From contig CAXBMO010000005.1 of the NCBI GenBank assembly GCA_963977015.1, positions 256,001 to 320,000 on the forward strand: a stretch of DNA of 64,000 bases, read 5' to 3'. The position numbers and the translations under genes are program-made. Positions 773 to 7,501 of the stretch are shown one piece after another. Positions within the stretch are counted from its first letter, which is position 1. Every line of letters begins with the position of its first letter. The notes beneath the pieces were generated by a model. It had not been told where the DNA came from. It saw only the letters and a list, made by a program, of their open reading frames with translations, and did not search any database. The stretch is from an uncultured bacterium (lineage in GTDB: Bacteria; Verrucomicrobiota; Verrucomicrobiia; Verrucomicrobiales; DEV007).

Positions 773-1723
773 ATGAAGATTTGAATCCTTACACCATCGG
801 CCGCAGTTTCGCGGACCGGGAATCGCTGCACGGCGAGCCAATGGGCCGAGATGATCGCCGGGCCGGGGTTGGTCATCTCAAAGTGCGAAGGATCGTGCAC
901 CGGTGGGCCGAAAATCCTGATTGGGCTTCATGCCGAGCGAAGCCACGCGTCGATCGTGAATTTTCGCGAGGAACATCCGGAGGGTCGCGTAATCCTGGCT
1001 CTGACGGGAACCGACATTTATCCCGCGCCCAATGAGACCTCACGCGAATCGATCGAATTGGCGGATCGGCTCGTCGTTCTTCAGCGCAGGGCGTTGAACC
1101 AGCTTCCGCCGGAATCGCGGGACAAGGCGCGGGTCATCATTCAGTCCGCGGTTCGCTTGTCTGACAAACCCGCGAATCCCGATACTTTTGACGTGTGCGT
1201 GGTCGGTCACCTTCGCGATGTCAAGGATCCGCTCCGGGCCGCCAAAGCCGCGCGCCTTCTCCCCGCCACGTCCAAGATCCGCATTCTTCACGCCGGCGGC
1301 CTACTCGATCCCCACTACGAAGAACTTGTCCAGATCGAACAGGCAGAGAACCCGCGCTATCACTACCTCGGCGAGTTGGACGAACAGGGAATCGCGGATT
1401 TGATGGCCCAAAGCCGGATTCTCGTCGTGTCGTCCCGCCAGGAAGGCGGCGCGCGGGTCGTCGGGGAAGCGATCGTGCATGATACGCCGGTGATTTCATC
1501 CCGGATCGATGGAGTCGTTGGCCTGCTCGGTCCGGAGTATTCCGGATATTTTGACGTTGGCGACACCGCAGGTCTCGCGAACCTTCTTTCCAAGGCGGAA
1601 ACAAATCCGGAATTTGCCGCAGCCCTCAACCGTGAAACCCAGGACGTCGCTCTTCAATTTGACCCGCAAGTCGAATGCGATGCCTGGAAACAGCTGATCG
1701 CTGAACTTACCCCCGCTTCATGA
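773..1723 (+). CDS. senB: Selenosugar synthase SenB (GT-B glycosyltransferase) with an in-frame UGA at codon 4
   Basis: ATG773 AAG ATT TGA ATC CTT ACA CCA reads MKI-U-ILTPSAAVSRTGNRCTASQWAEM and is in frame with ORF 851-1723. SenB-type motifs: GNxxTA, LHAxRS, LTGTDIY, VGHLRDVKDP, SRQEGGA. Lies between selD and an EgtB-like gene. Confidence 0.9.
797..819 (+). promoter_or_regulatory. Putative SECIS element of senB
   Basis: Hairpin TCGG-CCGC-AGTTTC-GCGG-A-CCGG. The loop G lies 22 nt after the UGA at 782-784, and the loop resembles the selD hairpin. Confidence 0.65.
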
Positions 1724-3012
1724 ATTGCTGCCCCCAAGAACTCCTCTCCTGTCTCGATGAAGCCGACTCGCGCATGGTTGCCCTCATTGACACGTTGACC
1801 GACGAACAGCTCCACGTGCCTTATGAACGTGGCATCAATCCGCCCATCTGGGAAATGGGCCATTCCGCGTTCTTCTTTGAGTATTTTTTGCTGCGAGAAC
1901 TCTACGGCGGCGAGGTCCGCATGCCGGGCTACGACGAGATCTGGGATTCGTTCGAGATTCCGCATCGCGAACGCTGGAGCCAGGGCGTCGTCCCGCCAAA
2001 AACCGAATCGTTCGATTACTATCGTCGCGTCATCGACGAGACGCGTTCCAAGCTCGATCGCGAATCCGAGCTTACCGGGAAGGAAGCCTACCTGACGAAG
2101 TACTGCATCGCCCACCAGTGCATGCATCTTGAGTCGCTCATCTGGTCGCGACAAACGCTGGGCTATCCTGCCCCACCCTTCTCCGAACTGGCTCCGGACG
2201 GACTCGAAACCACAATTGATTCCGGGGACGCGGAGATTCCCGGCGGAGACTACTTCATCGGCATTCCTGCTCACGATCAGAATGCGCCGGACGCGACCTT
2301 CAGCTTCGACAATGAACGCCCCGGGTTCACCAAACGACTCGAACCGTTCCAGATCTCCAAGACCCTGGTTTCCAATCAGGAATTCGCTGAGTTTGTCGAT
2401 GACGGCGGCTACGAGAATCCGGACCACTGGAGCTTTGGCGGCAAATACTGGCTGCGCGAGTCCGCCGCCAAACATCCCATCTACTGGCAAAAACGGGACG
2501 GAGAATGGTGGATGCGACGGTTCGATCAACTGGAACCGCTGCGTTTGAAAGCTCCGGCGCTTCATCTCTCGTTCCGCGAAGCGGAGGCATTCTGCAAATG
2601 GTCCGGGCGCCGTCTCCCTACCGAATTCGAATGGGAAGCAGCCGCCCGTGGCCCCGGGGCGTTTCTCTATCCCTGGGGCAACCAAATCGTCGATCACGCA
2701 GCCTGGGACCTCGACGCCAAGTATCTTGGCACGGCTCCGGTTACCGCGTTTCCTCAGGGAGCAAGTCCGTCCGGTTGTCTGCAAATGCTCGGCACCGCCT
2801 GGGAGTGGACCACGAGCCAATATCTCCCGTTCGACGGTTTCAAAGTCGACATGTATCCTTATATGTCGACCCTGCAATTTGGCGATCACAAGACCACGCG
2901 CGGTGGCGGCTGCGCGACGTCTTCCTGCATTATTCGCAACACCTACCGCCAAGCCTATTTTCCGGATCGAAACGACGTCTTCATTGGTTTTCGAACCTGT
3001 GCTCAGGATTGA
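1720..3012 (+). CDS. senA: Non-heme iron selenoxide synthase of the EgtB/OvoA family (SenA, possibly OvsA clade)
   Basis: DinB-like N-terminus (NPPIWEMGH; HQCMHLE metal motif) plus FGE-sulfatase domain (RLPTEFEWEAAARG, GTAWEWT, GFRTC). ATGA overlap with senB. Confidence 0.85.
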   Translation: MNCCPQELLSCLDEADSRMVALIDTLTDEQLHVPYERGINPPIWEMGHSAFFFEYFLLRELYGGEVRMPGYDEIWDSFEIPHRERWSQGVVPPKTESFDYYRRVIDETRSKLDRESELTGKEAYLTKYCIAHQCMHLESLIWSRQTLGYPAPPFSELAPDGLETTIDSGDAEIPGGDYFIGIPAHDQNAPDATFSFDNERPGFTKRLEPFQISKTLVSNQEFAEFVDDGGYENPDHWSFGGKYWLRESAAKHPIYWQKRDGEWWMRRFDQLEPLRLKAPALHLSFREAEAFCKWSGRRLPTEFEWEAAARGPGAFLYPWGNQIVDHAAWDLDAKYLGTAPVTAFPQGASPSGCLQMLGTAWEWTTSQYLPFDGFKVDMYPYMSTLQFGDHKTTRGGGCATSSCIIRNTYRQAYFPDRNDVFIGFRTCAQD

Positions 3013-3113
3013 ATCCCGGAATCGGGATCGCATTCCAATCCGATAATCCGATTATAATGGCTACGGAATAGCTTGATCCTGTAGTCTAGCGTCAATTCTA
3101 ACCCAATGACTTG

Positions 3114-7259: not shown

Positions 7260-7353
7260 CGGAGTGGGAAGGAATCGAACCAACCTCGGCAAGGATCACT
7301 TGTCGACAACGGTTTTGAAGACCGCGGGGGCCACCAGGCACCCATCGCACTCC
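7260..7353 (-). tRNA. selC: tRNA-Sec (anticodon UCA)
   Basis: GGAGTGCGATGGGTGCCTGGTGGCCCCCGCGGTCTTCAAAACCGTTGTCGACAAGTGATCCTTGCCGAGGTTGGTTCGATTCCTTCCCACTCCG. Long D-stem with a 4-nt TGGT loop, CTTCAAA anticodon loop (TCA at 7318-7316), long variable arm, GTTCGATTC T-loop, discriminator G. CCA is not encoded. Confidence 0.95.
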
Positions 7354-7501
7354 ATTGGCTTATGCAGCGGAGAAGCTTGGTCTCTCAGTCGCTCCCGTCA
7401 ATAAAAACAGACAGGGTATCGTAGCATTTGCACATTTTTTTTTGTGTGCGACTAACCATCTCAAGCAGGGTTGCATCTCTCAACGGATCACAACAGCTAA
7501 T

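Follow-up and report, generated by a model that had tools for sequence, protein, structure and literature searches.

A conserved in-frame UGA and adjacent hairpin suggest selenocysteine at residue 4 of SenB in a marine Verrucomicrobiales genus

Introduction

The only known pathway that places selenium in a small molecule via a selenosugar has SenB as its first dedicated enzyme, and SenB is described as an ordinary protein. Here the analysis concerns the senB gene (773–1723, + strand) of a 64,000-nt stretch of DNA, referred to as the window, from an uncultured bacterium of a marine Verrucomicrobiales genus (contig CAXBMO010000005.1). Codon 4 of this gene is an in-frame TGA (782–784, + strand) proposed to encode selenocysteine (Sec). 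The genome of the window is labelled G000 and those of the other species of the genus G001, G002 and G003. The characterized SenB enzymes of Variovorax paradoxus and relatives (8fbx, 8jjq, 8jjn and 8k5u) share family, key residues and selD/senA neighbors with the window protein, but are ordinary proteins carrying Val (8jjq, 8fbx) or Ala (8k5u) at the aligned position.

The bacterial selenoprotein gene type exemplified by Escherichia coli fdhF has an in-frame UGA with a Sec insertion sequence (SECIS) hairpin just downstream. The window senB resembles this type in having a UGA, a stem-loop with a GU apical loop about 20 nt on, and SelA, SelB and the Sec tRNA (tRNA-Sec) present in the genome; it differs in that the putative Sec is at codon 4, within a structural β-strand that has no redox motif, and in that its counterparts in homologs are Leu, Ser or Val and seldom Cys. 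In the E. coli selAB leader, a SECIS-like element binds SelB and lowers translation. The proposal made here for senB shares with it the use of SelB/SECIS recognition for regulation and not for catalysis, but the leader element lacks a decoded UGA and acts on initiation, whereas senB control would be exerted at UGA decoding. Whether UGA/SECIS decoding serves as a bacterial selenium sensor that sets priorities among selenium pathways is a long-standing question. A further likeness is to the Sec-type SelD encoded next to senB, a selenium-pathway enzyme that, as proposed for SenB, needs selenium for its own synthesis and whose gene has a UGA and a GUU-loop hairpin. The Sec of SelD is catalytic and lies in an N-terminal loop, whereas residue 4 of SenB is at no known functional site. 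In the passages on SelD of a 2026 review of the prokaryotic selenoproteome, its Sec alternates with Cys in other species (PMC13188914).

An earlier note on this DNA, made from the sequence alone, knew of no report of SenB as a selenoprotein, and a literature search turned up none. The words “SenB” and “glycosyltransferase” occur 0 times in the table or main text of the 2026 review (PMC13188914), and “glycosyltransferase”, “TIGR04348” and “selenoneine” occur 0 times in a 2022 preprint on eight new selenoprotein families. Those passages of the original pathway preprint and of the Nat Commun 2024 SenB paper that mention Sec deal with other pathways only, and no Sec form appears in the keyword-matched passages of the Biochemistry 2023 SenB paper (the keywords did not include Sec).

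Results and discussion

Conservation of the in-frame UGA in senB

The UGA at 782–784 is probably decoded as Sec via a hairpin at 797–819, which would yield a complete SenB bearing Sec as its fourth residue, and SenB of this genus is very probably an unreported selenoprotein with its Sec at a non-catalytic spot. The earlier note had already proposed that the UGA is read as Sec. Support comes from the conservation of both TGA and hairpin, purifying selection on the gene and a complete Sec machinery, from which we infer that insertion itself is likely.

The frame opening at 773 reads ATG AAG ATT TGA ATC CTT ACA CCA, with ATG at 773–775 and TGA at 782–784 exactly as previously described, and ends in TGA at 1721–1723, so that reading through codon 4 gives 316 residues plus stop. 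By homology the product is SenB, which acts as selenosugar synthase in selenoneine biosynthesis. It scored 330 bits against the TIGR04348 (NCBIfam) profile (cut-off 300), with profile positions 1–309 of 310 aligned to residues 3–310, and its closest PDB relatives were the four SenB structures named above (E about 1e-48). Residues N17, T20, K151 and E224 align with N20, T23, K158 and E231 (EGGA motif) of the Variovorax enzyme; in an alignment of 84 sequences N17, K151 and E224 never vary, and at least 90% retain T20. According to the mutagenesis passages of PMC10891094, N20, T23, K158 and E231 matter in Variovorax SenB and N20/T23 are needed for activity, while G19 is proposed as a phosphate contact in the corresponding passages of PMC10702425 and PMC10891094.

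When 61 relatives were searched in six frames, the codon-4 TGA turned up in all three other species genomes of the genus, so that it recurs in relatives and is not private to the strain. SenB of G003, G002 and G001 shared 76%, 70% and 56% identity, respectively, with the window protein and began MKI*ILTP, MKI*ILTP and MKV*VLTP; the public records of these three genomes stem from three different assembly projects. Synonymous sites are saturated among the four species (proportion of synonymous differences, pS, 0.61–0.78), and the ratio of nonsynonymous to synonymous substitution rates (dN/dS) was 0.08–0.25 in the four of six species pairs with a computable dS. None of the four genes (314–317 codons) has a frameshift, and each contains a single internal stop. 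All four retain the 12 nt ATG-AAR-RTY-TGA, though the upstream DNA of G002 and G001 could not be aligned to that of the window, and the only changes at codons 2–3 within the genus are K>K and I>V, which match the family consensus M-[KR]-I.

These data bear directly on the explanation that senB is a pseudogene or that sequencing or assembly introduced the TGA in error, which would account for a stop at codon 4, for the truncated protein that is all the gene callers give (P0003) and for the two frames of senA in G002. It is countered by the TGA in four independently assembled species genomes and by a gene under purifying selection at saturated synonymous sites, with no second defect in the form of a further stop or frameshift. 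Assembled (Logan) contigs of three runs from two studies also agree with the window, spanning 782–784 without difference (the sole difference is at 880, in one run); a further run, X4, yielded none. A metagenome protein scan gave one TARA scaffold (L089), identical to the window across 2,805 bases, which probably comes from the same organism and is therefore not independent evidence. The pseudogene or error explanation is thus close to refuted: the TGA is real, conserved and selected, and neither an error nor a strain quirk.

Beyond the genus the codon-4 TGA was not found. Among the 134 genomes of the whole family, 76 of which have senB at E ≤ 1e-30, none outside the genus had an internal stop; stops flagged in G113 and G136 proved to be normal terminators. 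In a sample of the order (401 genomes, 78 with senB), an internal TGA was limited to the genus and to one genome of another family, G042, and one TAG was flagged in G407. A scan of 185,579 species genomes, from which the window's own genome was excluded, with the pattern ATG-MRN-RTN-TGA-(3 codons)-CCN-(6 codons)-ACN-GGN-AAY gave 31 matches, three of which were senB (G001–G003). The phylum sample (401 genomes) held no further senB and the class sample (401 genomes) one senB, with no stop; because these two samples yield almost no senB, they are uninformative on a wider spread of the TGA.

The hairpin downstream of the UGA

The earlier note had described a hairpin of CCGC (801–804), loop AGTTTC (805–810) and GCGG (811–814), with loop G806 22 nt past the UGA, and this element is present. 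In its full extent, the SECIS-like hairpin UCGG-CCGC / AGUUUC / GCGG-A-CCGG occupies 797–819 (+ strand), with one bulged A and its loop starting 20 nt from the UGA. RNAfold extended the stem to CGG-CCGC / GCGG-A-CCG (798–818) and gave a 60-nt piece −19.8 kcal/mol. In all four species the loop starts at exactly +20 nt, on stems of 7–10 bp with one bulge allowed, and the loops AGUUUC, AGUUAC, CGUGUC and GGUCUU all contain GU. These hairpin criteria are our own; an apical-loop G about 16–37 nt after the UGA, as in the bSECISearch-type criterion, is found in all four species.

The hairpin is conserved not only in its distance from the UGA. Across the four species 38 of 314 third-codon positions are invariant gene-wide (33 of 306 degenerate ones), and those of the stem (codons 9, 10, 13 and 14) are all among them, while those of the loop (codons 11 and 12) vary. 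At codon 13 the amino acid differs (Ser/Thr/Ser/Leu), yet the third-base G is kept. The frozen stem positions and the pattern at codon 13 point to selection on the RNA and not on the protein. Paired cells made up 84.4%, as opposed to 21.9–53.1% in slid-partner controls.

As a chance rate, a qualifying hairpin followed 7.3% of 30,110 in-frame positions in long open reading frames (ORFs) of the window's own genome, and 4.0% when only loop starts at 18–26 nt were counted. The hairpin by itself is therefore weak evidence, and the weight lies on the joint conservation of TGA and hairpin. RNAalifold additionally drew a lower stem (782–825) in which the UGA is paired with GGG-AAU-CG of codons 16–18, one pair being changed on both sides; these codons are also fixed by the protein. 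The E. coli fdhF element has been described in similar terms.

Sec machinery and other Sec genes of the genome

SelA, SelB, SelD and tRNA-Sec are all encoded in G000, in agreement with the tRNA-Sec and Sec-type SelD claimed from the window alone. SelB scored 293 bits (cut-off 242) and SelA 498 bits (cut-off 268), and the tRNA-Sec gene at 7260–7354 (− strand; G000:C5:263260-263354) matched Rfam RF01852 with 61.8 bits (gathering score 47), although ARAGORN misses it; the TGA of selD is at 612–614 (− strand). G001–G003 and G042 also have tRNA-Sec and SelB above cut-off. About 4 kb separate the sen cluster from the tRNA-Sec gene downstream of it, and in G002 (G002:C17:12126-12220) the gene is about 1.3 kb from senB.

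Three other genes of the genome with UGA at a known Sec site provide a standard for the senB hairpin. These are a thioredoxin (WUGPC; loop GUU at +23), SelD (GUU at +33) and DsbD (DWULTC; AGUU at +23), the selD hairpin being CUC-A-CGCAA / GUU / UUGCG-GGGG at 566–588 (− strand) with its loop starting 33 nt from the UGA. Judged by sequence, the UGA/hairpin design of senB matches that of all three. Only hand-checked Sec genes were used here, because a genome-wide CxxU/UxxC listing was too noisy (6,649 candidates) and a stricter coding-potential filter (23 candidates) missed SelD, thioredoxin and senB. The other probable selenoprotein genes of G000 are the thioredoxin WUGPC at C1:180743 (+), a thioredoxin-like SWUGPC at C11:142396 (+) and DsbD on C12 (−) near 129.5 kb, each with a GU-loop hairpin 23–26 nt past the UGA.

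The machinery bears on the possibility that a near-cognate ordinary tRNA (e.g. for Trp or Cys) reads through the UGA, perhaps with stimulation by the hairpin, and that no Sec is inserted. A conserved TGA and hairpin would be consistent with stimulated readthrough as well, and column 4 of the protein tolerates many residues. All five TGA-bearing genomes, however, have SelB and tRNA-Sec, the hairpin's distance and GU loop match those of SelD, thioredoxin and DsbD in the same genome, and ARAGORN found no suppressor tRNA; a low level of readthrough would moreover give little enzyme where a sense codon would be simpler. Ordinary readthrough is very unlikely.

Two other ways of passing the UGA were considered and rejected. 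An alternative genetic code with TGA as a sense codon was dismissed since TGA terminates senB and its relatives and is the commonest stop of long ORFs (1202 of 2747), and none of the 59 tRNAs detected by ARAGORN had a stop anticodon (this program also did not see tRNA-Sec). A +1 or −1 frameshift was dropped as the homology continues in frame across the TGA.

Residue 4 in the SenB protein

An AlphaFold2 model built on 84 sequences (mean predicted local distance difference test, pLDDT, 94.8) predicted a glycosyltransferase GT-B fold with a strand at residues 2–7, a helix at 16–28 and a strand at 34–39. The model accordingly places residue 4 midway along the first strand (β-1) of the N-terminal Rossmann domain. 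It is followed by G16, N17 and T20, the aligned counterparts of Variovorax G19, N20 and T23. By alignment, residue 4 is not among the known substrate-binding or catalytic residues.

The earlier note had suggested that position 4 is often Cys in SenB homologs, which did not hold. In 83 full-length homologs this column contains Leu in 42, Ser in 8, Val in 6, Ala in 5, His, Thr, Phe, Cys and Gln in 3 each, Gly, Ile and Glu in 2 each, and Lys in 1. The three Cys (P0073, P0104 and P0106) all belong to one distant clade, and the sister clade of the TGA genes carries Ser or Gly. These three homologs give at most a weak sign of a Cys/Sec alternation at this column, and the nearest relatives show none. 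With Cys so rare, residue 4 does not behave as a classical catalytic Cys/Sec active-site pair.

Translation start and database records

An in-frame stop at 767–769 excludes a start upstream of ATG 773. Public gene callers place the start at ATG 851, giving a 290-aa protein (P0003), and starts of this kind are called for the window genome and two relatives (P0003, P0005 and P0006). As the earlier note had pointed out, a start at ATG 851 drops the first β-strand and the GNxxTA motif: strand 1 and G16/N17/T20 are lost, and since the counterparts of N17 and T20 are required by mutagenesis, the product would be non-functional. Other records begin at codon 5, NCBI using ATC for G003 (P0004, 312 aa, “MLTPSAAV...”) and G001 being called from GTG (P0012, 313 aa). 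In the public records P0003–P0006 and P0012, SenB is thus either cut to Met27 (288–290 aa) or begun at the codon-5 ATC/GTG (312–313 aa), so that family surveys miss or mis-start SenB of this genus. If the Sec reading is true, the SenB entries for these lineages in public databases are truncated or mis-started.

The codon-5 records correspond to a second explanation, in which the TGA is a true stop closing a mini-ORF (ATG-AAG-ATT-TGA) and ribosomes initiate or reinitiate at codon 5 to make a SenB that lacks its first four residues. In addition to the database calls from ATC and GTG, the latter a normal start codon, this would be in line with the retention of ATG and TGA, which a functional mini-ORF would also keep. 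Yet codon 5 is ATC, a very rare start codon, in three of the four species, and in the AlphaFold2 model a start there would leave only three residues of strand 1. Furthermore, 66 of the 83 homologs start M-x-I at the aligned position, codons 2–3 obey a family amino-acid consensus that a mini-ORF would not need, and a GC-rich hairpin with frozen synonymous sites 14 nt past such a start is not predicted. On balance initiation at codon 5 is unlikely, although it fares better than the other two alternatives.

Points that weigh against a Sec-containing SenB

Several observations argue against the reading of codon 4 as Sec. The sequencing support at 782–784 consists of assembled contigs and not raw reads, and no RNA run containing the locus was found. 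Compensatory base-pair changes in the hairpin numbered 0 and its covariation score was 0, in a set of four related species with little power; five of its eight pairs never vary and three are broken in some species, so the structure rests on conservation. A GU-loop hairpin is also found at the equivalent place, with no TGA there, in G042 and five other homologs (6 of 52 non-TGA homologs), so that part of it may follow from the coding of A-A-V-x-R-T-G-N. An Rfam scan of 500–1000 (E up to 10) gave no match; it is uninformative because the SelD SECIS was missed too. At the protein level, the scarcity of Cys at column 4 and the Ser or Gly of the sister clade do not favor Sec, and in G001 the codon following the TGA is GTG, a normal start codon. 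To our knowledge, no Sec is known so near a start codon. The gating role discussed below is itself inferred.

An early UGA in a second SenB clade

G042, the sole genome of its family, has a senB gene (L007, G042:C387, 1114-2100) with TGA at codon 31 (MIE-U-PAVKVEVVTS) and His at aligned column 4. Its hairpin, GGAAGU-GGUC-ACUUCC, has 6 bp and a loop starting 20 nt from the TGA. The corresponding alignment column (column 30) is variable, mostly charged and free of Cys (Glu 29, Ser 11, Asp 10, and others). The five nearest database relatives of G042 SenB (P0124–P0128, 57–98% identical) are all called as N-terminally truncated, with starts 3–17 residues downstream of the TGA site, while more distant relatives are mostly full length. 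This truncation pattern suggests that the TGA may be conserved across the P0124–P0128 clade. A 30-residue N-terminal fragment of the G042-clade protein was searched for among short database proteins and none was found. In a quick maximum-likelihood tree, G042 and P0124–P0128 formed one clade (Shimodaira–Hasegawa-like approximate likelihood ratio test, SH-aLRT, 99), and the codon-4 clade stood well apart from it (SH-aLRT 94), sister to the Ser/Gly genes. By topology, the first β-α-β unit has both residue 4 and residues 30/31 at its N-terminal end.

A possible selenium-dependent gate on SenB synthesis

With Sec at codon 4, translation would start at ATG 773, and SelB with Sec-tRNA(Sec), recruited by the hairpin, would decode the UGA at 782–784, so that the full-length SenB would carry Sec in strand 1, at residue 4. 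As residue 4 is non-catalytic and tolerant of many residues, it is more probably the UGA/SECIS requirement that is selected than an active-site selenium chemistry. The TGA and hairpin were held while neutral surroundings turned over, and the Sec-decoding requirement may for this reason be the function itself. SenB would compete with SelA for selenophosphate. When Sec-tRNA or SelB is scarce, release factor would stop translation after a tripeptide, at almost no cost, and selenophosphate would not be diverted to selenoneine; when selenium is plentiful, SenB would be completed.

We tentatively suggest that the senB UGA/SECIS could thus be a selenium-sensing translational gate, with selenoneine made only after selenoprotein needs are met, and that such a device might have evolved in SenB on two occasions, once at codon 4 in this genus and once, in the G042 clade, at codon 31; this is a possibility to be viewed with considerable doubt. 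The separate early UGA in the second clade, as far as its sequence goes, fits the idea of a gate. Alternatively, both sites could mark a convergent selenium-handling or docking surface.

If true, a Sec-containing SenB adds a selenoprotein family that is invisible to screens based on Cys homologs. A Sec at a non-catalytic, non-Cys site just behind the start codon, in an enzyme that would compete for selenophosphate, makes the question of UGA/SECIS decoding as a selenium sensor a testable one.

Neighboring genes

The gene following senB, senA (1720–3012, + strand), encodes a selenoneine synthase-like protein and its start overlaps the senB stop (ATGA). It scored 402 bits against NF041186, slightly below the 420-bit cut-off, and FGE-sulfatase and DinB_2 domains were found. 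On the other side, the divergent selD (selenophosphate synthetase; 3–683, − strand) begins 90 nt upstream of senB and runs off the window start, so that its N-terminal part is contained here; it is of the Sec type, with the TGA at 612–614 (residue 24) within the motif SCAG-U-ASK. In every relative looked at senA comes after senB, and among the relatives selD is upstream in G003 only.

A consensus scan of 560–900 for promoters and terminators gave 0 sites. The 89-nt spacer between selD and senB contains a perfect inverted repeat, AGTTTC-CAAC-GAAACT (716–731), a possible operator whose sequence is unchanged in G003. In G002, senA matches in two pieces in different frames (residues 1–203 and 207–428; around 3031–3050 of locus L003), indicating a frameshift or an assembly error. 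Within the genus SenA is far better conserved than SenB, with 71–87% identity compared with 56–76%.

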